A stretch of 64,000 nucleotides of DNA from Candidatus Poseidoniaceae archaeon (GCA_965659685.1 CBFHXB010000011.1:8595-72594); one strand, 5' to 3'. Positions 14,005 through 63,649 are shown, numbered from the stretch's first letter. Notes: generated by a model from the sequence alone, not told the origin. Program-made: numbers and translations.

Positions 14005-17000
14005 GCAGCGTCGCCGTGCGTCCCTTGGGATGCTTCTGGTGCTCCTGCTGCCCCTCTTCGTCCCCGTGGTTCATGCCGGCCTTGGTCCCTTGCGGCAAAC
14101 CAGCAGCTCAACGGCCACGGTGACCCCTCTCGGAGGTGGCGGTGGCATCACGGCGAACAACGTCACGTCCGTGTCGGTCCCGCTCAACCATACCGTGGTG
14201 GACGCAGGTCTCACCTTGGGGACCGTGTGGAGCGAAGACGGATCCAACGGCACCCAGTTTTCTCATGACGTGAGGACCGGCTTCTCGGTTGGTCTCCACG
14301 ACCGCACGGAGGGCCTGTTGAGGGGAGGTCGGTTGACCCTTGCTTCACCGGAGTCGACCAACGACGTGGAGGACTTTGAGGATCCTGTCCTGACCCCCGA
14401 CGGCTGGCTGGCCGTTGGAAGCGCCGACCGTTCGTGGTCAACGGTCAACCTGAGTTCAGCGTCGTTGAACGCTTCGTTCCCTGCAAGCGCCCAGGACGGC
14501 CACAGGGCCCTCCTTCTTGGGGGGGCAAACGTGAGCTTGACGCCCAAGATGGCCGGTTGCTTCGTTGCGCCTCAGGTGGACGGTCCACGCGTGGTTCGAA
14601 ACATGACGGTCAACTTCCACTCCTCGGCCGATTTGGGTCCTCAGGACGCACGTTGGGTTGAATGGCGCAGTGCGACGTCCCCGACGTGGGCAGCCTTGGC
14701 TCCTGAAGGAGGATACCCGCACGCGATGAACGGGAGTTTCGATGCGGGCATGCAACCCGACCCTACCGGGCTGAGTGCGGCATGGGTGGGCGACGAAACC
14801 CAAGGATGGATGCGCCATACGCTCTCCCTCGACGGGCACGTGGGATCATCTGAGCCGTGGTACCAGATTCGCTTCTGTTTCGCGACGACCAACGAGACGG
14901 CATCACGTTCCGGATGGTTGCTTGACGGACTCAGCGTTCACAACGAAGGCGATCCTGGTGGGGCTTGGTTCCATGGCAACCTCTCGGGCGCCTATGCGCC
15001 AGACGCGGACGGTTGGGTGATTTTGGACACCGATCTTTCCGGGCTCTCCTCTCCCACGGAACTTGTGTTCCGGGCAAATTGGGACATGGAGGGCGGTTGG
15101 CAAGACAGCATGACCACCCTCCTCAGCCTCGACAACGGCACCTCGTGGACCTTGTTGTCGCAAGCCCCCGGCCTGCCTGGAAACGGCATCCTCTGGCAAG
15201 GAGGGTGGCTGACGCAGGAATCAGGGGGGTGGATCGACGTCGGCTACAGCCTCCCACCCGCCGTCTTCACCTCTTCGAACGCGTCGTCCGCTCAACTGGC
15301 CTTCCGTGTCATCACCGACACCAACGTTGGGTACGGCAACGCCGGCGTGGACGGTTGGGAGGGCATGGCCATCGATGACCTGCGTGCCATCACCTACGGT
15401 GGTGTCGGCAACACCACCGTGCGGATGCTGAACAATTTCACCTCCACTCCTGTGCTGGGACAAGGGGTCAACCTGAGCCAAACAAACAGCACGAACGAAT
15501 GGGCATGGACCACCGCCCTCGGTGCAAACGGCCCAACATGGTGGAATGCATCCTTTGAATCCGGTCGCATGGTGCCTCGCGGCTGGTCGATTTCATTGGA
15601 GCGGGGCCAAGGTTGGGACGTGGGGGTGCTTCCCAACGGAACGACCTCGGGACCCCGGGCTTGGACGTCGGGGAACAACGGTGCCGGGATCGTCCTCGAC
15701 GGGGATTACGCCGCTGAAAGTTTGGCCTTCTTGACCTCGCCGAGTTACAGTCTCCCGGACAACAGCAGCGCACGTTTGGCCTTCCGTTCGTGGGTGTGCA
15801 CGGAAACAGATTGGGACGGTGGAGCCGTCCAGATTTCCGTGGACGACGGTGCCACGTGGTGGTTCCCACCTTACCACAGCCACACGCATCACACCCTTTC
15901 GAGGATGAACCCATATTCGCCGTTCTACGATGAAGGCATCTACGACGGCTCCATCCACAACGGTGGATGCCCCACCCGTTCGCAGAGTTTCGACGCCGAA
16001 ACCATCGACGTCAGCAACTTGTCTGGACAGGACGTTCGCTTCAGGTACGTCTTCTTCTCCGACACCTGGGTGGAAAAAGACGGGTGGTACATCGACGATG
16101 CAGGCGTTGAAATCGACGTGTTCCTGAACGAAGGCACCTGGACGTCCCCCGCATTCAGCGCTCCAGCTCGGTCCATGTGGGGGTTGCTCGACGGTCATGC
16201 AAGGCTCCCTCCCGGCACCAATCTCACCGTCGATTTGCTCCATCAAAACGGCTCGGCGGTGGACGGGTGGACGGGCCTCACGCTCCCCACCCACGTCAGC
16301 CTCCTGACCAGCGAGGCGCCCGTGCTCCGCCTCCGCGTGAACATGTCCACCACGTCCTCCTTGGCCACGCCCATCCTCGAACGGCTGACCATGGGGAGTG
16401 TGGCGCATCTGGATGCTGCCCATCTCGGACCAGTGCTACCAAGCGGCCTCGTGGTGGGTCAAGACGGTGCGGTGAGCAACGTGGCCACCTCGGGCACCTA
16501 CCTGCCCTTCTCAGCATGGCCCTCGTGCCCGCACGACCGGGCAACGGTGCACGTGATCGCGCAAGGAGCTCGCCTTGTGGCCCCAGGGGCCTCCGTCACG
16601 TCCGTCGGCAACGCCTCTGGGGTCGAAACCTTCGACGTGGCATGGAACGCCGTGCGGTTGCACTCTGGGATCAGCATGGAATTGCCTCCAGGCGCGAGCA
16701 TGAAGGAGGTCCGAAGCGAAGTGGATTGCGTCCATTCGGCCACCGGACTCACGGTTGGTCTCGACACGCAAACCCACGAGGTGTTCGACATGGCCTCCTT
16801 GGGTCATGGAAACGTGCTTGGCGCTGCCGACGCGTTGGCCATGGTCCTGAACGCCACCGACGGTACCCTTCTCTGGGACGGCAACAGCAGCAGCTCAGGG
16901 CCCGTCACCGCTTCCAACCAGAGCCTCGAATTGGTGTGGTGGGTGGAAGGTTCGTCCAGCCAGTCCGCCTCCTCAATCCCCTTTGACATGGTTTTCGACC

Positions 17001-20000
17001 TCGGAGCAGAGGGTCTCTCCGCCTCTCATCCGGCCAACACCGTCACCTTCACCCACGTCACCAACGGCGCAGGTCATCTTCACCTCAACGGCATCGCCTC
17101 ATGTCAACGTCACGCCGATGCGCCCTCGGTTGACGGACAGCGGTGCAGCACTTCCTTGCGGGTCTGGTCAGCGGCCACCTTGCAGCCCCATGCCTTCACC
17201 GCACTGAGTCCCGTGGACGATCGTCGGCTGTCGCTGGACCTCGCCATCGTGGACGCGGCCTTGGCCGACCGGCGTGCCGGGAGCACGGCGTCTGAGCACC
17301 CGCTCGAAGTCTGGGTTGCGACAGAGCACGGCGCCGTGGACGTTACCCTCGATCTCTCTTCCCGCGTCACGTTGCACGACGCCTTTGTCCAGGTTCCAAC
17401 ACGGGCATGGACGCCGGGGACCAACGTGACGGTCATCACCGAGCACGAGCGGACCGACCCACGAGATCCCCTTTCCAGCGTGCCGCTGATCGAATCGGTC
17501 ACGCTTGGGTTTGGTCCTTCACCGTCCTCACCGCTTGGTGAAGTCACGGTGGATCGTTTGAGCGAAGGCCTCGCTCGGTTCAGGCAACCCGGCGGGGCCG
17601 GAATCGCGCCACTGCAAGACACCAGCACCGTGGCGTGCGACGCCCGTTCATGCCGGGTTGCGTGGACGTTCACGTCGACATGGTCCTTTGATGACGTGGT
17701 TCGCCTGCATTGGTGGACGGCCGCAACGGACGTGGAGGGACTGACCACCGGACCCGTGGTGCAAGCCATGGACGTGCAGGGCAACGACGTCGAGAACGAC
17801 CTTGAGGTGCTCTCTTTGGAAGTGTTCGACGATCGGGGACGAGCCTTGCACGACTGGACCAAGCCGCTTTGGCCGTACGAAGTGAGTGCAAACCGGAGCA
17901 TGGAGGTCCGCGGTCAACTTCGCATCGAAGGCATCGCAGGCGTCCACCCCTCGGCCGGCGATGCCTCCATCAGCCTCGAGTTGCGCAACGGGACGTGGAT
18001 GGACAGCGTCTTCGTCAGCGTCCAAGACGGGGGTTGGTTCAACGGCACCCTTGTCATGCCGCAGCCCGGCATCTTGCCAAGCGGCGCGGAGCTGACGGTG
18101 CAGGCACGCATCACGAGGTTCGGCCCTTACGATGCACCCTCCACCACCAGCGAGCAACGGGGCACCTCTCCGGTGGTGGACCTGGTGTACGACGACGTGG
18201 CTCCTCAACTCGTCGCCTTGGACGTGCTTGACCCCGGGGGCCGGCAGCCGGCAGACGGCCATGTGCTTCCCGCTGACGCGAACGTCGCTCTGGTGTTGAA
18301 CCTCAGAGACGACCAAGGCTTGGACGGACCCGCCTTCGTCTGGTCGTGGTTGCAATCGCGTGACGATGCCAACGGCAACGGCGTCAGTGAGGCAGGGGAA
18401 TGGGCGCGTGTCCTGGTGCCGTTGGCCGAAGGACGCACGGAACAATCCCTTGACTTGCCGTTGATTCAGGCCTCGGACATCGTCCCAACCGGAGCCGATC
18501 TTGGCCTTGCTCGCTTTGTGGTGGAAGCCTACGATGTGGCAGGGCACATGCTTCCCGGAGGCGGTGCATTCGAAGGGCCGTTCGCAGCGGAACTTCGTCT
18601 TGAAGCACGCCGACCCACCACCGTCCCTACGTCGAGTTTGGTGCTTGACGCAGACCAAGGTCGGTTGTATCCTGGCCATCTCCACACGTTCTCCGTCGAA
18701 GTCAGGGACGCCAACGGCCTGACCACCTTGGACGCCGTCGAACTGGCCCTTCTCGGCCAGGATGAAGACGCATGCCGTATCCTCTACGTCCCAAGAACGG
18801 AGGAAACCCGACCCGACGTGGCATGCTTCCTCGGCGCACCCGTGGTCAACGTTCAGCACCTCGGTGGGGCAGCATGGCGGCTGGACGTGACCTTCAGGTT
18901 GCGATGGGACGTGGCCTCAACGCATGCTGGACAGGACCATGTCCCGGCCCTGTTCGTCCGCGACGAGGGCCAAGACCTTGGCCTCGGATTTGGGCGGATC
19001 AGCGCCTTGACGTGGTGGACCAACGCCTCGGTTGATCTTCGTCTGGAGTCGGCCACGGACACCTCTCCGCCGTACGGCTCCTACACAGACGGGTCCCTTT
19101 TCGCAGAGCGTGGCGACGTGGTGAACTTCGCGTATCGTGCGGTGCACTCCAACTCCAACCGCACAGCAGAGCGGCTGCCCGACACCGTCCAATTGGACTG
19201 GTCGGTCACCGACGGAGCCCGCACGGACTCGGGTTCGCTGGACGTTCCAAACGACGGCAGGCCGATGCTTCGCTTGTCCCTCGACCCCACGCTCTTTGTC
19301 CGAACCTCGGGTCAATTGGACGCCACGTTGTCGGGTTGGTCGGAAGGAAACCTGTCCCATCGGGTGACCGTGCACATCGACGAGAACGATCCTCGCTTGC
19401 GGGTGGACGCCGTCCGCTTCCTGCAGGTGGACAGCACCTCGCTCGGTGAGGTGCCGTTGGCGGTCACCGTGCAGGACGTCGAGCGTCCCGTGGAGCAAGG
19501 GGTTGAGGCCCATTGGAGGATGTTGCGTCAAGGCCGCGTGCTCGACGGCTCTCAGGGAAGCACAGCCTTGTTTCTCGAATCCATGAACGGCCAATCAGCC
19601 CTTCATTCTGGAACCGTGGACCTTCGTCCGGACGGCTTCAACGTCGTGGAAGGTGACGTTTGGCAGGTGTGGTTCACCGCGACCGACGCCTCCGGGAGGG
19701 GTGCGGTCGGAGAAGGCAGCCTCACCGAACCCGTCACCGTCACGATGCGGTGGATCGCCTATCAACCCGCCCTTGCTTCCTTGGTGGCCGCCCCGTACCG
19801 CCCGTCCGTCGGCGACGTGGTCAACGTGGATTTCGAACTGGCCAATGGGGGCGTCTTGCCTGGCTCGACCCACGTTCGATTGGTGGACGGCGAAGGGGTG
19901 ACGCTGACCGAGGCGCAGGTCGCCCTCGAACCCGGAGAGCGCCAGCGCGTGTTGTGGACCGTCGAAGCGTGGACCGTCGGCGACCTTGGACTTCGTCTCC

Positions 20001-20224
20001 AACTCGGCAACGGGACCGTAAGCGACGTCCCCGTGCCGCTGGCAGACGTCAGCGCAGCAAGCGATGCCCCAAGCGGCAGCAACGTGGGTTGGACGAGCCT
20101 TGGCGCTCTGGCGCTCATTTTGGCCGTGGCAAGCCTTGTCACCGTTCGAATGCAAACCGGATCGAAGCCTCCCTCGAAGCAGGTTGTGGATCTCGGGTTC
20201 GAGGCCTTCGATGAGGAAGAATGA
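14003..20224 (+). CDS. giant (~2070 aa) secreted surface glycoprotein candidate with a C-terminal TM anchor
   Basis: The signal peptide MQRRRASLGMLLVLLLPLFVPVVHAG starts at ATG 14003 (or MEAH at 13991). I counted more than 30 N-x-S/T sequons by eye. Lectin/MAM-like module ends recur ('GWLLDGLSVHNEG', 'GWEGMAIDDLRAI', 'GWYIDDAGVEIDVF'). The C-terminus has the TM helix 'LGALALILAVASLVTV' followed by an acidic tail. The track start 13742 overlaps the divergent gene. Confidence 0.7.
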   Translation: MQRRRASLGMLLVLLLPLFVPVVHAGLGPLRQTSSSTATVTPLGGGGGITANNVTSVSVPLNHTVVDAGLTLGTVWSEDGSNGTQFSHDVRTGFSVGLHDRTEGLLRGGRLTLASPESTNDVEDFEDPVLTPDGWLAVGSADRSWSTVNLSSASLNASFPASAQDGHRALLLGGANVSLTPKMAGCFVAPQVDGPRVVRNMTVNFHSSADLGPQDARWVEWRSATSPTWAALAPEGGYPHAMNGSFDAGMQPDPTGLSAAWVGDETQGWMRHTLSLDGHVGSSEPWYQIRFCFATTNETASRSGWLLDGLSVHNEGDPGGAWFHGNLSGAYAPDADGWVILDTDLSGLSSPTELVFRANWDMEGGWQDSMTTLLSLDNGTSWTLLSQAPGLPGNGILWQGGWLTQESGGWIDVGYSLPPAVFTSSNASSAQLAFRVITDTNVGYGNAGVDGWEGMAIDDLRAITYGGVGNTTVRMLNNFTSTPVLGQGVNLSQTNSTNEWAWTTALGANGPTWWNASFESGRMVPRGWSISLERGQGWDVGVLPNGTTSGPRAWTSGNNGAGIVLDGDYAAESLAFLTSPSYSLPDNSSARLAFRSWVCTETDWDGGAVQISVDDGATWWFPPYHSHTHHTLSRMNPYSPFYDEGIYDGSIHNGGCPTRSQSFDAETIDVSNLSGQDVRFRYVFFSDTWVEKDGWYIDDAGVEIDVFLNEGTWTSPAFSAPARSMWGLLDGHARLPPGTNLTVDLLHQNGSAVDGWTGLTLPTHVSLLTSEAPVLRLRVNMSTTSSLATPILERLTMGSVAHLDAAHLGPVLPSGLVVGQDGAVSNVATSGTYLPFSAWPSCPHDRATVHVIAQGARLVAPGASVTSVGNASGVETFDVAWNAVRLHSGISMELPPGASMKEVRSEVDCVHSATGLTVGLDTQTHEVFDMASLGHGNVLGAADALAMVLNATDGTLLWDGNSSSSGPVTASNQSLELVWWVEGSSSQSASSIPFDMVFDLGAEGLSASHPANTVTFTHVTNGAGHLHLNGIASCQRHADAPSVDGQRCSTSLRVWSAATLQPHAFTALSPVDDRRLSLDLAIVDAALADRRAGSTASEHPLEVWVATEHGAVDVTLDLSSRVTLHDAFVQVPTRAWTPGTNVTVITEHERTDPRDPLSSVPLIESVTLGFGPSPSSPLGEVTVDRLSEGLARFRQPGGAGIAPLQDTSTVACDARSCRVAWTFTSTWSFDDVVRLHWWTAATDVEGLTTGPVVQAMDVQGNDVENDLEVLSLEVFDDRGRALHDWTKPLWPYEVSANRSMEVRGQLRIEGIAGVHPSAGDASISLELRNGTWMDSVFVSVQDGGWFNGTLVMPQPGILPSGAELTVQARITRFGPYDAPSTTSEQRGTSPVVDLVYDDVAPQLVALDVLDPGGRQPADGHVLPADANVALVLNLRDDQGLDGPAFVWSWLQSRDDANGNGVSEAGEWARVLVPLAEGRTEQSLDLPLIQASDIVPTGADLGLARFVVEAYDVAGHMLPGGGAFEGPFAAELRLEARRPTTVPTSSLVLDADQGRLYPGHLHTFSVEVRDANGLTTLDAVELALLGQDEDACRILYVPRTEETRPDVACFLGAPVVNVQHLGGAAWRLDVTFRLRWDVASTHAGQDHVPALFVRDEGQDLGLGFGRISALTWWTNASVDLRLESATDTSPPYGSYTDGSLFAERGDVVNFAYRAVHSNSNRTAERLPDTVQLDWSVTDGARTDSGSLDVPNDGRPMLRLSLDPTLFVRTSGQLDATLSGWSEGNLSHRVTVHIDENDPRLRVDAVRFLQVDSTSLGEVPLAVTVQDVERPVEQGVEAHWRMLRQGRVLDGSQGSTALFLESMNGQSALHSGTVDLRPDGFNVVEGDVWQVWFTATDASGRGAVGEGSLTEPVTVTMRWIAYQPALASLVAAPYRPSVGDVVNVDFELANGGVLPGSTHVRLVDGEGVTLTEAQVALEPGERQRVLWTVEAWTVGDLGLRLQLGNGTVSDVPVPLADVSAASDAPSGSNVGWTSLGALALILAVASLVTVRMQTGSKPPSKQVVDLGFEAFDEEE

Positions 20225-30152: not shown

Positions 30153-31115
30153 TCAGCGGCGACCCTGCGCCTCAAGGGAGACCCTTGAGGGCTCACGGAC
30201 CCCGAATTCTCGACGCATGTCCTGCACGCGGCGGTGGAATTCGCGTGCCAAGGTCCAGTATTCCAGGGAGCCTGCTCCGGCTCCGGAGGACGTGGGTTTG
30301 TTGAGCAAGACGGTCGGTGCTCCGGACCACGGTGCCTCAGCCACGTTCACCAGACGTCGAATCGACGTGCTGAACAATTTGTTCGGGATGCTGAGGGCGA
30401 CTTGGTCGCACACGTGACGCGACAGTTTGGAGCGGGCGTCGACCATGGTCATCACGACGCCGAAAATCTTCAGGTTCCGGTTGATCCTTCGCTGGATCAT
30501 CTTGACCGAGTTCATCAGCATGCTGAATCCTTCCAAGGAGTAGTATTCCGCCTGAACGGGGACCATCACCCAATTTGCTGCGCTCAGGGCGTTGATGGAC
30601 AACAGTCCGAGGGAGGGGGGTGTGTCGATGACGATGTAGTCGAAGTGGTCGATGATGGGCGCCAACGCTTCCTTGAGGCGAGTCTCACGCCCGATCTTGT
30701 GGGAGAGTTCGATCTCCGCTCCGGAGAGGTGGATGTCGCTGGGAAGCAACCAGAGGTTCTCTGTGGTCAGGGTGGCGGGTGGACGGCCCTTCTCGTTGCG
30801 CAGCATCCATGCGTTCCGCATGGAGGCCGTCAGGTCCTCAGGACCGATCAGGTACTCGTCCATCAAGGGCAATTCCTCGCCGAGATCGTTGGTCAAGAGG
30901 TCGTACGCCGTCTTTTTGACGCGCTTCTTCTCGATGCCAAAGGACGTCGCGCAGTTCCCTTGCGGATCCAAATCGATGAGCAACACCTTCGCAGGAGGTA
31001 GCCCCATCTTCTGGTGACCGCGGGCCAGCGCCGCTGCAAGGTTGACCGCCGTGGTGGTCTTCGCGCAACCGCCCTTTTGGTTGGCGACCGCGATGACCAT
31101 CTTGTACGGGTCCAT
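30153..31115 (-). CDS. parA: ParA/Soj-family ATPase (copy 2)
   Basis: It has the deviant Walker A 'NQKGGCAKTTT', plus 'LIDLDPQGNCATSFG' and 'VIDTPPSLG'. A ~40-aa insertion follows the Walker A region, and the C-terminal tail is basic. Confidence 0.85.
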   Translation of the reverse strand: MDPYKMVIAVANQKGGCAKTTTAVNLAAALARGHQKMGLPPAKVLLIDLDPQGNCATSFGIEKKRVKKTAYDLLTNDLGEELPLMDEYLIGPEDLTASMRNAWMLRNEKGRPPATLTTENLWLLPSDIHLSGAEIELSHKIGRETRLKEALAPIIDHFDYIVIDTPPSLGLLSINALSAANWVMVPVQAEYYSLEGFSMLMNSVKMIQRRINRNLKIFGVVMTMVDARSKLSRHVCDQVALSIPNKLFSTSIRRLVNVAEAPWSGAPTVLLNKPTSSGAGAGSLEYWTLAREFHRRVQDMRREFGVREPSRVSLEAQGRR

Positions 31116-34083: not shown

Positions 34084-34530
34084 TCATTCGTAGACCCAGC
34101 GCTGGCCGTCTTGAGTCCACTCCATCAGGCCTTCAGGGAACCAGAGGGCCAACTCCGCAGCAGCGGTGTCTTCTCCGTCGGATCCGTGAATCATGTTGTA
34201 TCCCATGTCCATGCCGTAATCGCCACGGATGGTGCCGGGGTCGGCTTCGCGGCCGTTGGTGGCGCCGATGAGGCGACGTGCGACGGCGATGGCGTCAACG
34301 CCACGCCATGCCATGCAGACGACAGGCCCTGAGGTCACGAAGGTGATGAGGCCCTCGAAGAAAGGACGTTCAGCGTGCACGGCGTAGTGCGTGCGCGCAA
34401 TGGTTTCGTCGGGGACCATGGACTTCATGCCCACCAATTGGAGGCCCTTGCGTTCGAATCGGTTGAGAATTTCACCGACCAAGCCGCGTTGGACACCGTC
34501 GGGCTTGATCATGACATACGTGGTCTGCAT
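34084..34530 (-). CDS. ndk: nucleoside diphosphate kinase
   Basis: 'TYVMIKPDGVQRGLVGEI' and 'NMIHGSD' are present. The start is trimmed to ATG 34530. Confidence 0.93.
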   Translation of the reverse strand: MQTTYVMIKPDGVQRGLVGEILNRFERKGLQLVGMKSMVPDETIARTHYAVHAERPFFEGLITFVTSGPVVCMAWRGVDAIAVARRLIGATNGREADPGTIRGDYGMDMGYNMIHGSDGEDTAAAELALWFPEGLMEWTQDGQRWVYE

Positions 34531-34589
34531 GGTTTTCACCTGAGTCGGCGACCGAGCCGCCCTTCAAGAAGCATCCTATGGCCGGTGGC

Positions 34590-35473: not shown

Positions 35474-36418
35474 TCAAGACCATGTTTTGAGGATGGATTC
35501 GACGCCTCGCGCGAGTGCTGGCCCGCCTTGGATGACACCGCGGGGGTTCGGCAGGCTTCCCGTCGCATGCACGCCGTCGACGAAACTGGAGAGCCTGTGA
35601 ATGGCGCCGCCGGTAAACAGTCCGTGGCAACACGCAGCGTGCACCGCGGTCGCGCCTTGGCTGCGGAGGGCATCTGCTGCACGGCAGATGGTGCCGCCTG
35701 TGGCGATCATGTCGTCGACGATGGCCACCACCTTGCCGTCGACGTCCAAGTCCTTCGCCTTGTGAACGATGGTGCGGGCATCAATTCGCGTCTTTTCCAG
35801 ATAAGAGAACCCGCAGCCAATGGCTTCCGCGACCGCTGAAGCACGGTCGATGGCACCTTTGTCGGGAGAGAGGACGAAGTCAGGTTTGACCGTGTCTTGG
35901 AGGTGAGCGGCGAGTTCGGGCATCGCGCTCGTGAAAGCGACGGGGACAGGGAGGTCTTCCAGCACGGCGGGAGCGTGAAGATCGAGCACGACCATTGCGT
36001 CACAATGGGCGGCAAGCAACCGACCGATGGCCTTGGCCGAAATCGGTTCACCTGGTTTGAAGCGCTTGTCTTGTCGGGCATAGCCATAGTAAGGGACGGC
36101 CAAAATCACGCCAGATCCGACGTCATCCATGGCTTGGGGGCCGATATTTCGCAAATTTTCCATGTTTCCCGCCCGGAGGTCCCGGATCAAGTCCAGGAGA
36201 AGCAGGGTTTCCACGATGCCAGCGTCTGGAAAGGTGTTCGACACCACGACGACAGGCTCGCTTCGAATGGCCTCAATGTGCTCTTCTGGCATCCTGACGT
36301 AGCCTTCCGTGTCGGGGAAGCGTCGTGATTCGGCATGGATGTGGGTCCAACCAAGGCTGGTGGCCAATTCCTCCGCGATGGCCCGCGCGTTGCTGCTGGA
36401 GACGACCGCCACGAGCAT
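35474..36418 (-). CDS. prs: ribose-phosphate pyrophosphokinase (PRPP synthetase)
   Basis: The PRPP-binding loop 'VAIVDDMIATGGT' and 'YYGYARQDK' are present. Confidence 0.88.
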   Translation of the reverse strand: MLVAVVSSSNARAIAEELATSLGWTHIHAESRRFPDTEGYVRMPEEHIEAIRSEPVVVVSNTFPDAGIVETLLLLDLIRDLRAGNMENLRNIGPQAMDDVGSGVILAVPYYGYARQDKRFKPGEPISAKAIGRLLAAHCDAMVVLDLHAPAVLEDLPVPVAFTSAMPELAAHLQDTVKPDFVLSPDKGAIDRASAVAEAIGCGFSYLEKTRIDARTIVHKAKDLDVDGKVVAIVDDMIATGGTICRAADALRSQGATAVHAACCHGLFTGGAIHRLSSFVDGVHATGSLPNPRGVIQGGPALARGVESILKTWS

Positions 36419-36463
36419 GGCTTCAACCGGCGCTTCAAGGGCTTTCCCGTGAGAGGTGGTGAG

Positions 36464-36537
36464 TGCGCGAGGCAGGACTCGAACCTGCGACCTCCCGGTT
36501 ATCAGCCGGGTGCTCCAACCGACTAAGCTACCCGCGC
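36464..36537 (-). tRNA. tRNA-Ile (anticodon GAU)
   Basis: I folded it by hand at 74 nt. The acceptor is GCGCGGG/CTCGCGC with one G-U pair. The D arm is GCTT...GAGC, the anticodon arm is CCCGG-CTGATAA-CCGGG, and the T arm is GCAGG-TTCGAGT-CCTGC. No CCA is encoded. Confidence 0.85.
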
Positions 36538-36588: not shown

Positions 36589-37182
36589 TCACTCAAATTC
36601 AGAGGCGTCCATTTCGTTGAGCGTGATGTAGGACGGCAACTGCATGGCCCGTTCAAAGGTGCGGCCAAGGACCACTTCATCGAGCCGATCACGGGTACGT
36701 GCGATGGCCGTGAGGGGAAGCCGGACGGTCTCTCCGAGCTCGAAACGCTGCTGGACGCCGACGCGAAGGGTGACGATGAATCCCTTGTAGGTGCGCTTGA
36801 CTTTCAGGAGGCCGGTGATGATGCCGACTTCGTTGCCCTGGTTGTCCAAGACCGCACGGTCGAGCATTTCGTCGGGTGCGTAGAGCTGTTCGTCGATGCG
36901 CACGGTGTTGCGCCAGCGACGCTGGAGTTCGCGCATGGACTTGGAGAGGCGTACGGAGCCGTCGTCGTTGATGCTGTGAACAAGCTCCTTGGGAAGGGGT
37001 GCAAATTCAGCAGGCTTGCGCATGAATTCGCCCGCCACGTCCGTTTCGACCAGAAGGCGAACGGATCGCACACGTGATTCGTTGGGGTGGTGACGTTCCC
37101 CGATGATGGTGCCCACTTTGGTGTCCTTGACGTACACGTCGCGTTGCATCAATTCCTGGATGTGGTAGTCTGTTGGTGCCAT
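36589..37182 (-). CDS. PRC-barrel-domain protein
   Basis: Two PRC-barrel-like segments are present ('VYVKDTKVGTIIGERHH...' and 'LDRAVLDNQGNEVGIITGLLKVKRTYKGFIVTL'). The family call is from memory of the fold's sequence pattern. Confidence 0.5.
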   Translation of the reverse strand: MAPTDYHIQELMQRDVYVKDTKVGTIIGERHHPNESRVRSVRLLVETDVAGEFMRKPAEFAPLPKELVHSINDDGSVRLSKSMRELQRRWRNTVRIDEQLYAPDEMLDRAVLDNQGNEVGIITGLLKVKRTYKGFIVTLRVGVQQRFELGETVRLPLTAIARTRDRLDEVVLGRTFERAMQLPSYITLNEMDASEFE

Positions 37183-37250
37183 GTTCTCCCTTCCCGTTGC
37201 ACCGCCTGTGCTGAGGGGGACACTTAATGTCTTCGACGGATAATGTAACT

Positions 37251-37268
37251 GTTCAATTAGGAATACGC
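37251..37268 (+). repeat. CAATT-core element copy (GTTCAATTAGGAATACGC)
   Basis: It is identical to 39461-39477 (GTTCAATTGGAATACGC) apart from one inserted A. Confidence 0.65.
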
Positions 37269-37282
37269 AGTTAGTGACGAAG

Positions 37283-37299
37283 AATCAATTGGAAATCGC
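37283..37299 (+). repeat. CAATTGGAA element copy (AATCAATTGGAAATCGC)
   Basis: It has the exact CAATTGGAA core with the WWCGC flank shared with the copies at 37492, 39464 and 44151(-). Confidence 0.65.
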
Positions 37300-37366
37300 C
37301 GATAATCGGCATGTCGCATAATCCATTTCCATAAGTAAATCGCGGCATCTTTCATTTCTGAACGAG

Positions 37367-37381
37367 GTGAAATTCCAATTG
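37367..37381 (-). repeat. CAATTGGAA element copy (minus strand CAATTGGAATTTCAC)
   Basis: The core is exact. The flank GGAATTTCAC resembles the 53.7-kb copy (TAATTGGAATTCAC). Confidence 0.6.
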
Positions 37382-37487
37382 GGCTTTCCTCATTCTTCAC
37401 CACGCGTAGGCGGGCCCGTCCGATCGGTGCCGGGGTGGGGTCGCCTGGCCGGTAGATTTCGACCTAATAATCGATAGTTTAAGCGAA

Positions 37488-37505
37488 TTTTCAATTGGAA
37501 AACGG
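37488..37505 (+). repeat. CAATTGGAA element copy (TTTTCAATTGGAAAACGG)
   Basis: The core is exact, with the flank GGAAAACG as in the ubiD copy. It lies ~70 nt upstream of ATG 37564. Confidence 0.65.
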
Positions 37506-37563
37506 CATATTTCGTTTTTCGTCATGTCGGCGAACTCATAGAGGCGGGCGAAGGTGGACGGGC

Positions 37564-38253
37564 ATGGCCGCCGTGGACCTGCGTGGACTTCATCCGCGCT
37601 TTTCCGCGACCGTGATGCTCCATGCAGCCCGCAAAGGCCACCCTGTTGCTGGCGTAACGGAGGCCGCCAGGCAACTTGCCCGGGTGCGTGACCCACTGGG
37701 TTTGTCTTCGCTCATTGAGGAAGAGGATGCCACTGCACGTTTGTCCGGTCCAGGGGACGGGTCCCGTTTCGAAGTGGAGCGAGACGGGCGCGTGCTGCAG
37801 GTGTGCCCCATCGACGTGATTCCTACGCTCACGGCAAGTTTCTGGCCCGATCTCTTGCTTGATGCTGATGCGAGGGCCGGTTGGTGGGTGGCCGAGCATG
37901 ACCTTGTCGAGGCTCTGTTGAGCCTCGCAGCACACCCGGTGCCAGAAGGACGCCTCGTCCTCAGCGGTCGGAGGCGTTGGCAGGCCACTGAGTTGATGCA
38001 CGAGGCCGCCCTCCTGCACCGACGCTGGGAGCAAGGGCAAGTCGGTGCCTTCTCGGTCGAGGTGTTGGCTGAACCTCAGCGTCCACCTGTCCGGGTTGAA
38101 CCCGTTGAATTGGACGATCAGGAGCCAGATCTCGGACCTTTGCACCGTCTCTTGTCTGAGCACCGTTCAGAGGGTTGGCGCCCCCAGATGACGGTGCGTG
38201 AAGCCTTGATGCACCATCTGGCCCTGGTAGAGGGAGCACTCAACCGCGGGTGA
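37564..38253 (+). CDS. hypothetical protein
   Basis: 229 aa from ATG 37564, with high third-position GC. I recognise no motif. The 3' end overlaps the dys stop by 14 nt (convergent genes). Confidence 0.4.
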   Translation: MAAVDLRGLHPRFSATVMLHAARKGHPVAGVTEAARQLARVRDPLGLSSLIEEEDATARLSGPGDGSRFEVERDGRVLQVCPIDVIPTLTASFWPDLLLDADARAGWWVAEHDLVEALLSLAAHPVPEGRLVLSGRRRWQATELMHEAALLHRRWEQGQVGAFSVEVLAEPQRPPVRVEPVELDDQEPDLGPLHRLLSEHRSEGWRPQMTVREALMHHLALVEGALNRG

Positions 38254-39272: not shown

Positions 39273-41693
39273 TCAATCAATCCCTGCGCCATCGAGCCGG
39301 TCACGGATCGTCATCAACCGGTCACGGAGCCGAGCGGCCTCTTCGAAATCAAGGGCCCGTGCAGCGTCTTCCATCGCTGCTTTGAATTCAGCGGCCAGGT
39401 CGACCAAGGCTTCCTTTGAGGTGGGAAAATCTTCGTCATGTTCCAATTGAGAAATTGAATGTTCAATTGGAATACGCTGGTCACTGTCCGCCGTGTTGTT
39501 GCTTGGCAAAAAGGCCGCAGCAGGGCCGTCTGCACGCCCACCACGCTTCGCCACCAAACGTTTCCCACCACGGGAAGTGGTGGTGCCTTCGAGGAGGCCC
39601 TCTGATTCTTGGCCCATTTGTGGAAGGGCCTTGACGATGGTGCGGGGTACAATGCCACGCCGTTCGTTGTCCTCGTGTTGCCGCTGGCGACGTTCCAAGG
39701 TTTGGCGGATGGCTCCGGTCATGGCAGGCGAAACGCTGTCGGCGTAGAGAAGGACGGATCCGTTGGCGTTTCGCGCAGCACGCCCGATGGTTTGCAAGAG
39801 CGATCGCTCGTTGCGAAGGAAGCCCTGACGGTCCGCGTCGAAAATCGCCACCAAGCTGACCTCAGGAATGTCCAATCCCTCTCGGAGCAGGTTGATGCCG
39901 ACAATGACGTCAATGAGGCCCAAGCGCAACGCGTTGATGATCTCGGTGCGTTCGATGGTGTCGATTTCCGAGTGGAGGTGGTGCGCCTTCACGCCCATTC
40001 GGCTGAGGTATGCGGCGACCTCTTCGGCGAATTTGATCGTCAGGACGGTCACCAAGGTCCGCTCCCCACGGTCGATTCTGGCGTTGATTTCTGAGAGCAA
40101 GTCGGCCACTTGCCCTTCAGTGGGTCGAACTTCAATGCCCGGATCCAACAAGCCCGTCGGTCGAATTTCCATGCGTGGCAAGTGGTCAATCGTTTGCAGC
40201 ATTTCGTACATCGACGGCGAGCCCTGGATTTTCTTGGCCACGTCCGCGGGCCCAGCGCCGCCCCTGGAAGCGACGTGAAGCAGGCCTTCAGGCACCGGTT
40301 GACCGGTCACCTCACACAGGTGCCGCAATTCGCGCTCGCCCGGTGTTGCAGAGACGTAGACCATTTGCGGGACAAGGCCTTGGAATTCTGGAATTTTCAG
40401 CGGCCGGTTGTCCGCGGCCGAAGGCAATCGGAAGCCGTGCTCAATGAGGTTCTCTTTGCGTGCCCTGTCCCCGTGGTACATGCCTCCTACTTGCGGGAGG
40501 GTCACGTGCGACTCGTCCATGATGACCAGGAAACGGGTGGGGTCGCCATGGAATTGACGCGCGCAGGCCGCAAAGAAGTCGAGCAAACAATACGGTCGTT
40601 CGCCTGCTTCACGGCCGTCGAAATGCCGTGAATAATTCTCGATGGCCAAACAGTGTCCGACTTCCCGCAGCATCTCAAGGTCGTACTCTGTGCGTTGTTC
40701 CAAGCGATGGCGCTTCACCTGCTCTTTCGTTCCGTCGAAGTACCGCAGCCGGTCGTTCAGTTCGCTTTCAATCCGCTCAAGCGCGATTTCGAACCGCTCC
40801 GGGCTGGTCATGAAGAACTCCTTCGGGTGAATCCAAGCCTCTTCCAAGGCGTCGAGCACCTCCCAACTGACCGGATCGCACACGGAGACGGCGATGACGC
40901 CATCGAAGTCGAATCGAATGCGAAGTGGATCGTCGCGGCTCGGCATCCATACGTCAAGCACTTCGCCACGCAAGCGGGCTTGGCCGCGTTCGAGGTCGGT
41001 GTTGGTGCGGGCGTACTGCAGCCCGACCAAAGCCCGCATCAAGTCCTGCGGTTCGATGGCCTGGCCCACGTGCACCCTGAGGTGGTGCTCCAGGAAGGTT
41101 TCGGGCGGATTGAGGCCGTAAATGCACGACACGGAGGAGACGATGACACAATCTGGGCGTGAGACCAAACTTGCGACTGCGGAGAAGCGCTCCTGTTCGA
41201 TTCGCTCGTTGATGGAGAGCTCCTTGTCGATGTACAGGTCTCGCTTGGGCAGGTAGGCTTCGGGTTGGTAGTAGTCGTAGTGTGAAACGAAGTATTCAAC
41301 GGCGTTTTCAGGGAAATAGCCGGCAATCTCGTGGTGCAATTGCCGAGCAAGCGTCTTGTTGTGCGAGATGATCAACGTTGGGAGGTTGAGCCGTTCGATG
41401 ACGTTGGCCATGGCGAAGGTCTTGCCTGAGCCGGTCACGCCAAGCAGCACACAGCGCTCTTGCCCTCCCTCGATTTGCTGCACGAGTTGTTCGATTGCTT
41501 CGGGTTGATCGCCCGCCGGTGCATGTTCGGAATGAAGGCGAAAGCGGCTCACGTCAGGACTCAGGTGTTCCAACGAAGCGCCTTCGAGCGCTCGTGAGAG
41601 GTCAAAGGGGTCCCGTTCCTGAAGGTCCACCTCGCCCACGTCGAGGTTGGCACGGGCCTCGAAGGACCCGTCGTCGTCCCATTCGTCGACCAC
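39273..41693 (-). CDS. uvrB: excinuclease ABC subunit B (UvrB), extended
   Basis: 'GVTGSGKT', 'DESH', 'QTIGRAARN' and the C-terminal UVR motif 'LDFEEAARLRDRL' are present. It starts at a GTG. The 806 aa includes a ~45-aa acidic N-terminal extension and a longer pre-UVR linker. Confidence 0.92.
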   Translation of the reverse strand: MVDEWDDDGSFEARANLDVGEVDLQERDPFDLSRALEGASLEHLSPDVSRFRLHSEHAPAGDQPEAIEQLVQQIEGGQERCVLLGVTGSGKTFAMANVIERLNLPTLIISHNKTLARQLHHEIAGYFPENAVEYFVSHYDYYQPEAYLPKRDLYIDKELSINERIEQERFSAVASLVSRPDCVIVSSVSCIYGLNPPETFLEHHLRVHVGQAIEPQDLMRALVGLQYARTNTDLERGQARLRGEVLDVWMPSRDDPLRIRFDFDGVIAVSVCDPVSWEVLDALEEAWIHPKEFFMTSPERFEIALERIESELNDRLRYFDGTKEQVKRHRLEQRTEYDLEMLREVGHCLAIENYSRHFDGREAGERPYCLLDFFAACARQFHGDPTRFLVIMDESHVTLPQVGGMYHGDRARKENLIEHGFRLPSAADNRPLKIPEFQGLVPQMVYVSATPGERELRHLCEVTGQPVPEGLLHVASRGGAGPADVAKKIQGSPSMYEMLQTIDHLPRMEIRPTGLLDPGIEVRPTEGQVADLLSEINARIDRGERTLVTVLTIKFAEEVAAYLSRMGVKAHHLHSEIDTIERTEIINALRLGLIDVIVGINLLREGLDIPEVSLVAIFDADRQGFLRNERSLLQTIGRAARNANGSVLLYADSVSPAMTGAIRQTLERRQRQHEDNERRGIVPRTIVKALPQMGQESEGLLEGTTTSRGGKRLVAKRGGRADGPAAAFLPSNNTADSDQRIPIEHSISQLEHDEDFPTSKEALVDLAAEFKAAMEDAARALDFEEAARLRDRLMTIRDRLDGAGID
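39441..39477. repeat. dual-core CAATTG element inside uvrB (TTCCAATTGAGAAATTGAATGTTCAATTGGAATACGC)
   Basis: There are two CAATTG cores at 39444 and 39464, 20 bp apart. The outer arms TTCCAATTGA / TCAATTGGAA are inverted repeats. This AT-rich patch lies in GC-rich coding DNA, in the linker before the UVR domain. Confidence 0.7.
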
Positions 41694-43891: not shown

Positions 43892-45800
43892 GTTCGGGAT
43901 GGGCGGCCACCTTTTCCAAGGTCTCAGGGCTGTGCAAGGTCACGGCAGGCCATCGGCGCACGCCATGAGCCTCTGAAGGAATCGGCGTGGTGGCGTCCCA
44001 GCAAAGGCGTGCTTTCGCTGCATCAAAGCTGAGGCCACGCCCCACGTCAAAGCGGCAAAAGAACTGCCACAGCATCCTTCGTCGTGCTTTCGAGCCGTGC
44101 AAGTCAAGGTCGTCATCCGTGACGATAAGCCAACGCAATTCCTTTGCGTTTTCCAATTGCCAAATTTGATTTCTCAATTGGTGAATCTTTTCTTGTCGGG
44201 CCTGCTCAAGCGCATCGCCCTCCGACGTGACGTCCGACCCGGTTCGCGCTGAGGGGCGGCCTTCGATGGACACGCTCACCACGAGCATGCTGCTGCGCAG
44301 CAGCCGTGCGTCTTCGACACCGTCGAGCGCGAGCACGGCGCCGAGGTCGTCCCCGGACCAGCCTGGGGCCTCGCCTTCTCCACGCCGCCAGTCAGGGGTG
44401 TCCTGACGGAAGGAACCGAGCAACGGCGAGTCCGAGGAGCGCGGATCCGAACGTGGGATGGAGGTCGCATCGATGATGACCTTGTCGTGGACGTTCTCGT
44501 ACGGGCTTGCCGCTTCGAGCGCGTCCGCCACCATGCCTTCGAGGACCAGCACGTCCTCCGAGGGATCCACCTTGTCGTTGAGGTCGTCAAGGAAGCCTTC
44601 GAGGTCCTTGGGGTCTCGGTCCGGGTCGACCACGACCATGGATTTCAGGAACATCATCTGGCCCGCGCCCATCAGTCCAAGTGCGGTCTTGCGTCCTTGG
44701 CGGGCGTAGCGTTGCTTTGACGCGACGATGGCAAGGTTGTGGAAACCGGTCTCCAACGGCAGATGAACGCTGACCACGTCACGGTGCTGGAAGCGAAGAA
44801 CGGGACTGAACTGACGTCCGATGGCCTCGCCGAGGAAACCGTCCTCCATCGGCGGCAACCCGACGATGGTGGCGGGGAGCATGGCGTCCTTTCGGCGCGT
44901 CACGGCGGTCACGTTCAGCACCGGGTAATGTCCGGTCAAGGAGTAGAACCCGTAGTGATCGCCGAAGGGGCCTTCCACGCGTAAGTCGGTGGGGTCCGTC
45001 CATCCTTCGATGACGATGTCGGCCTCGGCAGGGACCCAGAGGTCTTGCGTCGCCGCTTTGGTCAACGGCAGCCGGCGACGCCCGAGGATGCCAGCAAACT
45101 GGTATTCAGACAGGTTGTCAGGCAGCGGAGAAATCGCCGAGAAAATGAGTTCCGGCGGGCCTCCCAGACAGATGGCGACGGGCATGCGCACACCGGCTGC
45201 TGCGTGGTCTGCGCCATGCTTGTGGACCTGCCAGTGCAACCCTGCTTCCTTTGGTCCAAAAATTTGCGACCGGTACATGCCGAGGTTGTGCTCGCCGCTC
45301 GCGAGGTCGCGCGTCACCACCAAGGGGAGGGTGATGTACGGCCCTCCGTCCATGGGCCACGTCGTCGGGATGGGCAGTTTGGTGAGGTCAGGGTCTCTGT
45401 CAACGATGCGCTGAACGCTCCCTCGTCGCTTGCGCTTCGGGGCGAAGGCCAGGGCGTCCATCGCCAAAGGCAAGGCTTCCCACGGTCGCTTGAGGTAACG
45501 CGGCACGTCAGGCTTCATCATCGCCACCATGCGATCGCCGATGGCCGTCTCCGTCTCGACACCGAGCGCGCGAAGGGTGCGGTCCTCGCTGCCGAAGAGG
45601 TTCATCACCAGAGGAATGTCACTGATGCTGCCGTCAGCCAAGCGGGGTTGCTCGAAGATGACCGCAGGGCCGTCGTTCTTCACCAGGAGGTCAGCGATGG
45701 CGCCGGCCTCGTACACGACGTCGACGGGACGAGGGATGCGCAGCACCTCGCCACGGCTGTCGAGGTGGTCGACCCACCGCTTGAGCGTCCTCCATGCCAC
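43839..45800 (-). CDS. ubiD: UbiD-family (prenyl-FMN-dependent) decarboxylase with a ~150-aa internal insertion
   Basis: The N-terminus 'LKRWVDHLDSRGEVLRIPRPVDVVYEAGAIADL' and the C-terminal 'LIVTDDDLDLHG...MLWQFFCRFDVGRGL' resemble UbiD. It is 653 aa, against ~490-500 aa typical (from memory). Confidence 0.8.
   Translation of the reverse strand: MAWRTLKRWVDHLDSRGEVLRIPRPVDVVYEAGAIADLLVKNDGPAVIFEQPRLADGSISDIPLVMNLFGSEDRTLRALGVETETAIGDRMVAMMKPDVPRYLKRPWEALPLAMDALAFAPKRKRRGSVQRIVDRDPDLTKLPIPTTWPMDGGPYITLPLVVTRDLASGEHNLGMYRSQIFGPKEAGLHWQVHKHGADHAAAGVRMPVAICLGGPPELIFSAISPLPDNLSEYQFAGILGRRRLPLTKAATQDLWVPAEADIVIEGWTDPTDLRVEGPFGDHYGFYSLTGHYPVLNVTAVTRRKDAMLPATIVGLPPMEDGFLGEAIGRQFSPVLRFQHRDVVSVHLPLETGFHNLAIVASKQRYARQGRKTALGLMGAGQMMFLKSMVVVDPDRDPKDLEGFLDDLNDKVDPSEDVLVLEGMVADALEAASPYENVHDKVIIDATSIPRSDPRSSDSPLLGSFRQDTPDWRRGEGEAPGWSGDDLGAVLALDGVEDARLLRSSMLVVSVSIEGRPSARTGSDVTSEGDALEQARQEKIHQLRNQIWQLENAKELRWLIVTDDDLDLHGSKARRRMLWQFFCRFDVGRGLSFDAAKARLCWDATTPIPSEAHGVRRWPAVTLHSPETLEKVAAHPELANHSWPPHLRFPDGGA
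44146..44181 (-). repeat. dual-core CAATTG element inside ubiD (minus strand CCAATTGAGAAATCAAATTTGGCAATTGGAAAACGC)
   Basis: The cores at 44154 and 44175 are 21 bp apart. The minus strand aligns with the plus strand of 39443-39477 at roughly 80% identity: 13/13 at the left, 13/14 at the right, with a divergent spacer. Confidence 0.7.
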
Positions 45801-52020: not shown

Positions 52021-52079
52021 GCGTATGGCGTCGGATGCTTGAAGCGCACTTCTGTGCTCCCCGTGGATGAGGCAGCGAC

Positions 52080-53690
52080 ATGGACCGTCTTCCGAGCCGT
52101 TTTTCGCCCAACTCCGAGGAGGCCACCGCACGTCGTGAAGCCAACCTCGCGTTGATCGAGGACCTTCGTGCTCGATTGGACCAGGTCAGGGCCGGTGGAA
52201 GTCCACGAGCCGTGGAGCGGCATCGTGCTCGGGACAAGATGCTCCCACGCGAACGCATTGAGGCCATCATCGACCCAGGCACGGCTTTCCTCGAGACCTC
52301 CCCGTTGGCGGCCGATGGGCTCTACAACGACGGTGCGCCGAGTGCTGGAATCGTGACCGGCATCGGTGTCGTTCACGGGCGTGAATGCCTCTTTGTAGCC
52401 AACGACGCCACCGTGAAAGGAGGTTCATACTTCCCAATGACCGTCAAGAAGCACATCCGTGCTCAGGTCATCGCCCATGAGAATCACCTGCCGTGCATTT
52501 ACCTGGTCGACTCAGGCGGGGCCTTCTTGCCCATGCAGGACGAGGTCTTCCCAGACATCGGCCATTTCGGACGGATTTTCCGAAACCAAGCGCGGATGTC
52601 GGCCGACGGCATCCCGCAGGTCGCCGCCGTGCTCGGTTCCTGCACCGCCGGTGGAGCCTACGTCCCGGCCATGTCCGACGAATCGATCATCGTCAAGGGC
52701 AACGGGACCATTTTCCTCGCCGGTCCTCCGCTGGTCAAAGCCGCGACGGGCGAAGAGGTGTCGGCCGAAGACCTCGGTGGGGCTGACGTGCACACCGCCA
52801 CCTCGGGCGTGGCCGATCATTTCGCAGAAAACGAGCAAGAAGCCCTTCGTAAAGTGCGGAACGTCATCGAGAACTTGGGGCCACGGACCTTGGCGCCGGC
52901 TGCCGGTGCGGCACCGGAAGACCCGCATTACGACCCAGAAGAACTGCTCTCCATTGTCCCCGAAGACAACCGGACGCCCATCGATGTGCGGGAACTGATC
53001 GCTCGCATGGTGGACGGTTCACGCTTCCACGAATTCAAGCCCCGCTACGGCACGACCTTGGTCTGTGGCTTTGCCCGTATTCACGGGCACCTTGTGGGCA
53101 TCGTCGCCAACAACGGAATCCTCTTTTCCGAATCAAGCCTGAAAGGCGCGCACTTCGTGCAATTGTGCGGTCAACGGCAGGTGCCCTTGGTGTTCCTCCA
53201 GAACATCACCGGCTTCATGGTCGGGCGGGAATACGAAGCAGGCGGCATCGCCAAGGACGGAGCCAAACTCGTGACGGCGGTCTCCTGCGTTGACGTTCCC
53301 AAGTTCACCGTCATCGTCGGCGGCAGCCACGGTGCAGGCAACTACGGCATGTGCGGAAGGGCCTACGACCCCCGCTTCCTCTTCATGTGGCCGAACGCTC
53401 GCATCTCGGTGATGGGCGGGCCGCAGGCGGCCGATGTGTTGACGACAATCAAGCAGGACCAGCGCGCACGCGAGGGCAGCGATCCGATGACCGAAGATGA
53501 AGTCGAAGCCTACCGTGCTCCCATTCTAGAAAAGTACGAGGAAGAGGGTTCGCCCTACTACTCCACCGCTCGGCTGTGGGACGATGGCGTCATCGATCCA
53601 CGCGATACCCGTGACGTGCTCGGCCTCTGCTTGGCCGCGGCACGAAACGCACCCGCGCCTCAGAAGGGGTATGGAATTTTCAGAATGTGA
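52080..53690 (+). CDS. acyl-CoA carboxylase carboxyltransferase (beta) subunit, methylcrotonyl-CoA carboxylase-like
   Basis: It has full-length carboxyltransferase architecture. The N-terminus '[40 protein letters not shown]' is typical of MccB. The enoyl-CoA hydratase next door supports a leucine-catabolic role. Confidence 0.85.
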
Positions 53691-53722
53691 ATTCCAATTA
53701 AAAATTCAAAAATCCAATTGAG
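53691..53722 (-). repeat. dual-core element variant in the promoter gap before the hydratase gene
   Basis: The sequence is ATTCCAATTAAAAATTCAAAAATCCAATTGAG. Cores CAATTA 53695 and CAATTG 53715 are 20 bp apart. The minus strand reads CAATTGGAT...TAATTGGAAT. Confidence 0.6.
53698..53705 (+). promoter_or_regulatory. TATA-like box TTAAAAAT for the hydratase / biotin carboxylase genes
   Basis: It sits 26-33 nt upstream of ATG 53731 inside a 40-bp AT-rich gap. This geometry fits a leaderless or near-leaderless archaeal transcript. Confidence 0.45.
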
Positions 53723-53730
53723 GTTTTCCC

Positions 53731-63466: not shown

Positions 63467-63503
63467 CAATTTTTCAATTACAAAATCAATTTTCTAATTG
63501 GAG
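63467..63503 (+). repeat. multi-core CAATT element variant in the divergent intergenic region
   Basis: The sequence is CAATTTTTCAATTACAAAATCAATTTTCTAATTGGAG. The cores are CAATTA 63475, CAATTT 63487 and TAATTG 63495, with the outer pair 20 bp apart. Confidence 0.6.
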
Positions 63504-63649
63504 TTCTTCATCTGCCGTGCCAACATCACACCTCCGGCAGGTGATGGCTCCCCTGTCCTCCGTTTTTCAGAAATTCATGACCTCTGAAGGTTCGCGTTCT
63601 GAATTGGATTGCGAAAACCGCCTCCAAGGGCCGTTCGACGGGAAACATC

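Follow-up and report, generated by a model that had tools for sequence, protein, structure and literature searches.

What is the function of a long AT-rich gap between two divergent genes in a GC-rich archaeal genome? The question is raised by positions 37183–37563 of a 64,000-nucleotide stretch of DNA from Candidatus Poseidoniaceae archaeon (GCA_965659685.1 CBFHXB010000011.1:8595-72594; the whole stretch is referred to as the window). This intergenic gap is 381 bp in length (independent metagenome gene calls on 10 contigs give 380–381 nt) and separates a minus-strand gene encoding a 197-amino-acid (aa) protein of predicted PRC-barrel fold (36589–37182, the PRC gene) from a plus-strand gene encoding a 229-aa protein (37564–38253). 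An earlier note, made from the sequence alone, described the gap as a cis-acting hub of repeated boxes and proposed an origin, a centromere, or a multi-promoter region as its role. The hub is borne out, in that the positions of the boxes are fixed to the base pair in ~80 Poseidoniaceae genomes. The reading favored here, which we consider rather probable, is that the gap is an operator array of a dimeric regulator on a divergent promoter, shared by both genes.

The composition of the gap is as the earlier note described it, with a GC content of 0.493 versus 0.618 for the 64-kb window. The lowest-GC 150-bp stretch in all 64 kb is located here (37225–37374), with a GC content of 0.387, ~6 standard deviations below the mean (mean 0.617, standard deviation 0.037). 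A left part (37183–37395, GC 0.446) and a right part (37456–37563, GC 0.444) flank a GC-rich block (37396–37455, GC 0.75). The AT-richest 60 bp of the gap are 70% AT (37466–37525) and the best 30 bp are 77% AT, high values for a genome of 62% GC, although the fourth box, listed below, and promoter sequence account for much of this DNA.

The four CAATT-core elements reported previously are present above chance, with CAATTA at 37254 and CAATTG at 37286, 37376, and 37492. They correspond to the following boxes:

37252..37263: box 1, TTCAATTAGGAA, at −77 from the ATG of the PRC gene; most relatives have CAATTG as the core, where CAATTA is found here

37283..37294: box 2, AATCAATTGGAA; core at −109, with 32 bp to box 1, and unchanged across the 14-sequence alignment

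37373..37384: box 3, TTCCAATTGGGC; core at −199

37489..37500: box 4, TTTCAATTGGAA; its core precedes the ATG of the plus-strand gene by 72 nt

The 64 kb contain 23 copies of CAATTG, which by simple arithmetic corresponds to ~0.1 expected copies per 381 bp. Its extension CAATTGG is found 19 times in the window versus 8.6 expected, a count reached in 0 of 100 shuffles, and a scan of the window for the extended box returns 16 sites where 4.4 are expected and none of 30 simulations exceeds 9. The box consensus, TTYCAATTGRAA, is near-palindromic around an invariant core. As derived from 221 paired boxes, the consensus reads A-WWW-TY-CAATTG-RA-WWW-T, the symmetrized form of which is palindromic over ~18 bp. 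In L002, L009, and L010, box 4 has an imperfect half-site on the opposite side (TTCCAATTGAA), a switch that is expected if the site is a symmetric dimer site. Neighboring box centers in the gap are separated by 32, 90, and 116 bp. Among 80 loci, nearly all CAATTG-to-CAATTG distances are 20 bp (52 cases), 21 bp (9), 32 bp (26), or 33 bp (21), spacings that equal two or three helical turns. Literature searches with the box motif returned no relevant archaeal or Poseidoniales match, the string matches being to primers and unrelated sequences, and we know of no archaeal operator that matches TTYCAATTGRAA.

Conservation was evaluated at two depths: a within-clade footprint, for which the gap was aligned from 14 sequences, including species whose 229-aa protein is only ~60% identical, and a family-wide comparison of architecture in ~80 Poseidoniaceae genomes or upstream regions spanning 40–61% GC. 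The 80 related genome loci are all from Poseidoniaceae/Poseidoniales (Marine Group IIa), and the island, whose presence in close relatives the earlier note had proposed to check, is kept across the ~80 genomes. Within the clade, mean pairwise identity is 0.94 over the 82 nt beside the start of the PRC gene (37183–37264), 0.86 over a block termed R (37304–37329), and 0.71–0.73 for the three CAATTG boxes taken alone, whereas the third codon positions of the PRC gene, taken as the baseline, give 0.65 and the spacers of the gap 0.35–0.5. The CAATTG cores of the window's clade are found at −77, −109, −199, and −315 from the ATG of the PRC gene, and the core of the R block, ATTATGCGACA, is found at −139. 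In the other clades (genomes of 40–55% GC), cores are observed at approximately −95 and usually also at approximately −128, an oriented element with the consensus ATTATRCGACA across clades is observed at −109 and −168/−193, and most genomes also carry at least one distal box near the divergent gene, paired in many. In the 80 upstream regions, box positions with respect to the ATG agree within 1–3 bp inside clades. In both clades, the proximal boxes are located ~25–30 bp upstream of a TATA-like element, these elements being recognized from position and conservation only. For archaeal regulators, a placement 25–30 bp upstream of TATA is typical of an upstream activating or cooperative site.

The box is also used elsewhere in the window. 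The five lowest-GC 150-bp spots coincide with five box clusters, namely the gap and the clusters at 53.7, 63.5, 44.1, and 39.4 kb, and a sixth box site, at 46.3 kb, is seventh in the low-GC ranking. Of the five clusters outside the gap, two are conserved family-wide, and one of these two is non-coding. Four of the sites are as follows:

39440..39473: box pair, 20 bp apart, inside the 3′ coding region of uvrB, upstream of the deoxyhypusine synthase gene

44150..44184: box pair, 21 bp apart, inside the 3′ region of ubiD, upstream of ubiA; fourth-lowest-GC spot

53689..53724: two boxes, 20 bp apart, that take up the 40-nt spacer separating the carboxyltransferase gene from the enoyl-CoA hydratase gene, with the second box overlapping the Shine-Dalgarno (SD) sequence

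63467..63504: four AATT-core boxes forming two interleaved pairs 20 bp apart, in a divergent gap beside a TtuA-like gene; third-lowest-GC spot

Of the Poseidoniaceae genomes displayed, just one lacks the uvrB pair, despite divergent flanks, and in one of those that have it the second box is GAATTG. It is spelled with AT-rich codons even in GC-rich genomes, and protein coding may contribute to its retention. Among the 31 metagenome loci displayed, 28 have the 53689–53724 pair at its 20-bp spacing, either exact or with a single mismatch, and it is retained at protein identities as low as ~64%.

The remaining elements of the gap are the following:

37183..37222, minus strand: leader stretch between the TATA-like element and the ATG, containing a putative short 5′ untranslated region and a purine-rich, SD-like GGGAAGGGAG

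37223..37230, minus strand: TATA-like element of the PRC gene, ACATTAAG, ~45 nt upstream of the ATG; invariant in sister species

37233..37244, minus strand: R′, a degenerate second copy of the oriented element, ATTATCCGTCGA; ATTATGCGTCGA / TTATACGACGA are found there in L021–L023

37304..37329, minus strand: R block, with its oriented, locus-specific core at 37312–37322

37386..37484: spacer that holds the GC-rich block; identity 0.36

37526..37544, plus strand: conserved block upstream of the 229-aa gene, GTCGGCG..CTCATAGAGG; identity 0.70, with CTCATA nearly invariant

As judged from its sequence and placement, the 37223–37230 element would be the core promoter element of the PRC gene; in distant clades, AGTATAAGA / AAGTATAATAG occupies the place of ACATTAAG. 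The transcription start of this gene, positioned from the TATA-like element, would fall within 37183–37222. On the opposite side of the gap, the TATA-like CTCATAGAGG is centered ~25 nt upstream of the ATG at 37564, a spacing that suggests a leaderless mRNA for the 229-aa gene. The R core is present as a single exact copy within the window. Between one and three R elements are found per gap in the genomes scanned, and they are always co-oriented with the PRC gene.

The stretch between the cores of boxes 3 and 4 is 104–105 nt in every species of the clade. No fold of the GC-rich block within it outscores shuffled sequences on either strand in the 14 sequences (z −1.7 to +1.4). The earlier description of a GC-rich block between AT-rich halves is correct in composition. 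In sequence the block is the least conserved part of the gap, and it most plausibly acts as a spacer for which length matters and sequence does not. Two further elements noted previously are present and are not conserved in sister species: ATCGAT (37470–37475) and the 13-bp palindrome GCCGATAATCGGC (37298–37310), of which only the right arm is kept, within the 37304–37329 block. TTTAAG is likewise not conserved in the sister-species alignment.

These elements can be assembled into a model of an operator array. A TATA-like core promoter would be located at each end of the gap, one serving the CdpB-like PRC gene through a short leader and the other serving the 229-aa gene, probably as a leaderless mRNA. 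The ~300 bp between the two promoters would present four near-palindromic operators, most likely bound by a dimeric DNA-binding protein. Since the spacers are constant in length but not in sequence, the bound dimers would contact one another, by cooperative binding or by looping. The oriented ATTATRCGACA element probably binds a second factor or serves as an auxiliary promoter element. The same box recurs at other AT-rich islands, for the most part in pairs separated by two or three helical turns, which would make the gap the largest site cluster of a wider regulon. Palindromic boxes in helical phase, held at set positions relative to start codons and TATA-like elements, separated by spacers constrained in length only, and reused at other loci are the signature of cooperatively bound dimer operators. 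With regard to the sign of regulation, the placement of the proximal boxes upstream of the TATA-like element would fit either activation or cooperative repression.

Lrp/AsnC-family and TrmB-family sites are examples of operator arrays at archaeal divergent promoters. Similar to arrays of archaeal regulators, the gap contains multiple copies of a short palindrome that are whole helical turns apart, keep set positions with respect to TATA-like elements, are separated by spacers conserved in length only, and are reused at other genes. The main differences are that some pairs of the gap type are found inside coding regions and that the motif matches no archaeal operator known to us. Several further points weigh against an operator array. 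Pfam detects no DNA-binding domain in the flanking proteins, in two orthologues, or in six small neighboring open reading frames (ORFs), and the TATA elements, starts, and leaders are all putative, being read from sequence. The box-adjacent genes (a division-like protein, deoxyhypusine synthase, ubiA, acyl-CoA carboxylase/hydratase, and TtuA) are not united by an obvious theme. Two of the box pairs lie within coding sequence, 200–300 bp away from the following start, an atypical placement for simple operators, and some boxes have the form TTCC-N4-GGAA, near the mini-ORB core TTCC-N3-GGAA (ORB, origin recognition box).

If the operator reading is correct, the box represents a previously undescribed operator motif and regulon of an uncultured archaeal family. 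Poseidoniaceae (Marine Group IIa) rank with the most abundant archaea of the surface ocean; to our knowledge they have no cultured representative, and we are aware of no cis-regulatory signals described for them so far. The locus supplies a defined palindromic motif, spacing rules (20/21 and 32/33 bp), a family-wide control region, and several other conserved target sites, which can be used for regulon definition by scanning metagenome-assembled genomes (MAGs), for regulator discovery, and for the reading of metatranscriptomes. In this GC-rich genome, AT-rich islands represent constrained DNA and GC-rich non-coding DNA represents unconstrained DNA.

The presence of boxes both inside and between genes, coinciding with every AT island, together with AATT cores phased at ~10 bp in pairs, spacers of fixed length, and neighboring genes without a functional theme, would also suit an architectural or segregation protein (nucleoid-associated, condensin-loading, or centromere-like), for which the gap would be the strongest landing pad. 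This explanation is unlikely: positions fixed to the base pair with respect to start codons and TATA-like elements across a family of 40–61% GC are as for promoter-linked sites, the locus-specific R element is left unexplained, and neither of the two ParA/MinD-like genes (700–1713 and 30153–31115) has boxes upstream. No ParB/SegB-like gene is recognized in the gene calls of the window and its surroundings. The boxes have also been compared with those of archaeal origins (Pyrococcus, Sulfolobus, and Haloferax; PMC1904270, PMC1868953), with which the gap shares an AT-rich intergenic location and several 12–13-bp dyads, some of them TTCC...GGAA. As a chromosomal replication origin, the gap would hold lineage-specific mini-ORBs for Orc1/Cdc6, with 37466–37525 as the unwinding element. 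Some copies of the box have the sequence TTCCAATTGGAA, which is close to the mini-ORB of Pyrococcus, TTCCAGTGGAACT, where TTCC and GAA are invariant (PMC1904270); the gap is the sole four-box site and the AT-richest spot of the window, including its 60-bp AT peak; and spacer lengths are constant, as they would be in a higher-order complex. Clusters of more than two mini-ORBs are found in Pyrococcus only around oriC, including a conserved cluster inside the coding gene dp1 (PMC1904270), and the dp1 cluster of Thermococcales is similar to the window in that a related box cluster lies within a coding gene. Against an origin, the invariant part of the box is the central CAATTG and the flanks are degenerate, the reverse of ORBs, the half-sites are one base off (TTCC-N4-GGAA, not N3), and no copy is followed by a G-string. 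The box positions are locked to the base pair to two start codons, and the same boxes are found at five to six places in 64 kb. The cumulative GC skew, a check on an origin that the earlier note had proposed, has no extremum at 37.3 kb; it rises straight through this position, with its minimum at 22 kb and maximum at 49.5 kb (over 64 kb only, and archaeal skew can be weak), and, with a single exception, the genes to the left and right of the gap, from ~29.5 to 46 kb, are encoded by the minus strand. As the earlier note had stated, orc1/cdc6 is not adjacent: none is found in Pfam-annotated gene calls from approximately −9 to +74 kb (~84 kb), apart from the unannotated 20–27-kb part. A tblastn search with two Orc1/Cdc6 sequences gave no match in the window and 92 loci, the 20–27-kb part included, a weak test given that the queries were unverified. 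A literature search on Poseidoniales and replication origins found nothing. An origin of this type is thus very unlikely, and we assign an equally slight chance to the variant in which the boxes are diverged sites of Orc1/Cdc6, or of another initiator or segregation protein, and the array is an origin- or centromere-like site unlinked to orc1 and beside a CdpB-like gene. Were that so, an archaeal family that is uncultured and abundant worldwide would have its chromosome replication or segregation tied to cell division. Of the three roles proposed earlier, the multi-promoter role is retained in the form of a promoter with operators, whereas the origin and the centromere are unsupported in view of the skew, the lack of orc1/cdc6, the strand arrangement, the missing G-string, and ParA genes without boxes.

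The boxes might instead be core promoter or terminator signals, with TTGRAA on both strands resembling cTTGAAg, the apparent TATA-like element of this genome, and T-runs on both sides, so that the gap would be a bidirectional stack that possibly drives an unannotated transcript. A cTTGAaG hexamer is indeed found 30–45 nt upstream of the ATG of many window genes, the box flanks are T/A runs, and the R elements, co-oriented with the gene, take the TATA-like form AATTATAC in low-GC clades. What is invariant in the box, however, is CAATTG and not TTGAA, many copies including those of the window reading TTGGAA or TTGGGC, and the ordinary promoters of the window lack CAATTG. One box pair lies within uvrB, another overlaps a Shine-Dalgarno sequence, and both genes at the gap have separate, better-placed TATA-like elements; this interpretation is accordingly quite unlikely. 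The least probable of the explanations considered is that the gap is a small noncoding RNA or a long structured leader, with the conserved blocks as RNA elements. It draws on the R block and the 82-nt leader block, both of which are more conserved than synonymous sites, on the possibility that two palindromic boxes could pair in RNA, and on a hairpin in other clades located ~15–35 nt before the PRC gene ATG and immediately 5′ to the SD sequence GGAGATGGG (L027, L033, L042, L061, L065, L068, L074, L085, L089, and others). Single-sequence folds display this hairpin, and its stem differs by clade (GCCGG/CUGGC, GUCGGG/CCCGAC, GCCG/CGGC, GGCC/GGUC, and CGGUC/GGCCG) with pairing retained, indicative of compensatory changes. 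RNAalifold on a MAFFT alignment of the leaders yields no consensus pairs, a null result attributable to the poor alignment, in which the variable loops are mis-registered. Also opposed to an RNA are the failure of the GC block to fold better than shuffles in the 14 sequences and the position of the boxes upstream of the TATA-like element, where they are not expected in the transcript. No Rfam family reaches threshold in the gap: Rfam 15 at the gathering threshold on the window identifies only tRNAs elsewhere, and at E ≤ 10 on the gap it returns one C/D-box match (13.9 bits, E 5.8), which is noise, with no conserved C/D boxes found by eye.

The genes that flank the proposed operator array are the following:

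36589..37182, minus strand: tandem PRC-barrel gene (197 aa, CdpB-like fold), the start of which anchors the architecture

37564..38253, plus strand: fast-evolving 229-aa gene; synteny is kept family-wide at 27–65% identity

The 197-aa protein is 67–100% identical across Poseidoniaceae, and identical copies are found on TARA and other marine contigs and in one GenBank MAG. The PRC-barrel label that the earlier note had given to it is supported by structure and not by Pfam, in which no match is found even at E 10, the PRC model included. The AlphaFold (AF2) model of the protein has a pLDDT of 85.7, and a Foldseek search with this model returns as its best match the CdpB1/CdpB2 structure of Archaeoglobus fulgidus (8qzo, E 1e-7), followed by 3htr, RimM, the reaction-centre H subunit, and other PRC barrels. 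CdpB1 and CdpB2 are PRC-barrel cell-division proteins of Haloferax and Archaeoglobus (bioRxiv 10.1101/2023.03.28.534520; PDB 8qzo), so that the link noted earlier between PRC-barrel proteins and cell division is right per the literature and, given these fold matches, sound. Similar to CdpB1/CdpB2, the 197-aa protein has a predicted structure that best matches the 8qzo chains, and it is highly conserved in its family. Unlike them, it is a tandem barrel without a Pfam PRC match, and the TM-scores of its model to the matched structures are just 0.3–0.38. The modeled structure supports a PRC-barrel fold, and the protein is probably an FtsZ-associated cell-division protein, its likeness to CdpB being one of predicted fold. 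A separate PRC-domain protein of 79 aa is encoded beyond the window, ~7.8 kb past its right end, beside a CDC48-type AAA ATPase (L093/L094, 17813–18052), and may be the single-domain CdpB-type protein of the organism.

The 229-aa protein has no Pfam match. A low-GC orthologue has a weakly Rossmann-like N terminus (adh_short, E 0.13), and a Rossmann-like motif, GxxxxxG (MAVLIVGATCSLGE), is found at the start of low-GC orthologues (L068 5015–5695 and L061 4649–5509) but has decayed in the protein of the window, which suggests a degenerate NAD(P)-binding fold.

The neighboring genes to the left, all on the minus strand, encode tRNA-Ile, PRPP synthase, L7Ae, S28e, L24e, NDK, aIF5B, a MoxR-like ATPase, and a ParA-like ATPase. 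On the right, minus-strand genes for deoxyhypusine synthase, UvrB, SDR, PRA-PH, UbiA, and UbiD come after the plus-strand 229-aa gene. In L027, L033, L059, L061, L065, L085, and L089, but not in the window's clade, the DNA from the uvrB stop to the start of the deoxyhypusine synthase gene contains a conserved hairpin, CACACCCTACGGGTGTG, with a TTCTTGAAG-like element after it; the L089 version of the hairpin, GACATGTCCCTAAGGGACATG, is a compensatory variant. Two ParA/MinD/MipZ-like ATPases are encoded in the 64 kb, at the coordinates given above, and the first directly follows a 713-aa SAP-domain protein. The window also contains a 2160-aa ORF on the plus strand (13742–20224) and two proteins of 839 and 800 aa without a Pfam match (~24.6–29.6 kb). 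A phage-type integrase with small unannotated genes and an HhH protein is located ~5–8 kb to the left of the window (L095/L096, 1659–4772) and may belong to an integrated element. Two copies of the archaeal locus, L020 (CAXRAI010000058.1) and L032 (CALDQY010000266.1), are filed under Salinimicrobium sp. and Rhodobiaceae bacterium MAGs, probably as a result of binning errors. Finally, many genes of the window have, instead of an AT-rich TATA, a cTTGAaG-like hexamer 30–45 nt upstream (for example, at 34530–34575, 36418–36465, 52035–52079, and 63635–63679), and this hexamer may represent the core promoter element that the GC-rich lineage ordinarily uses.

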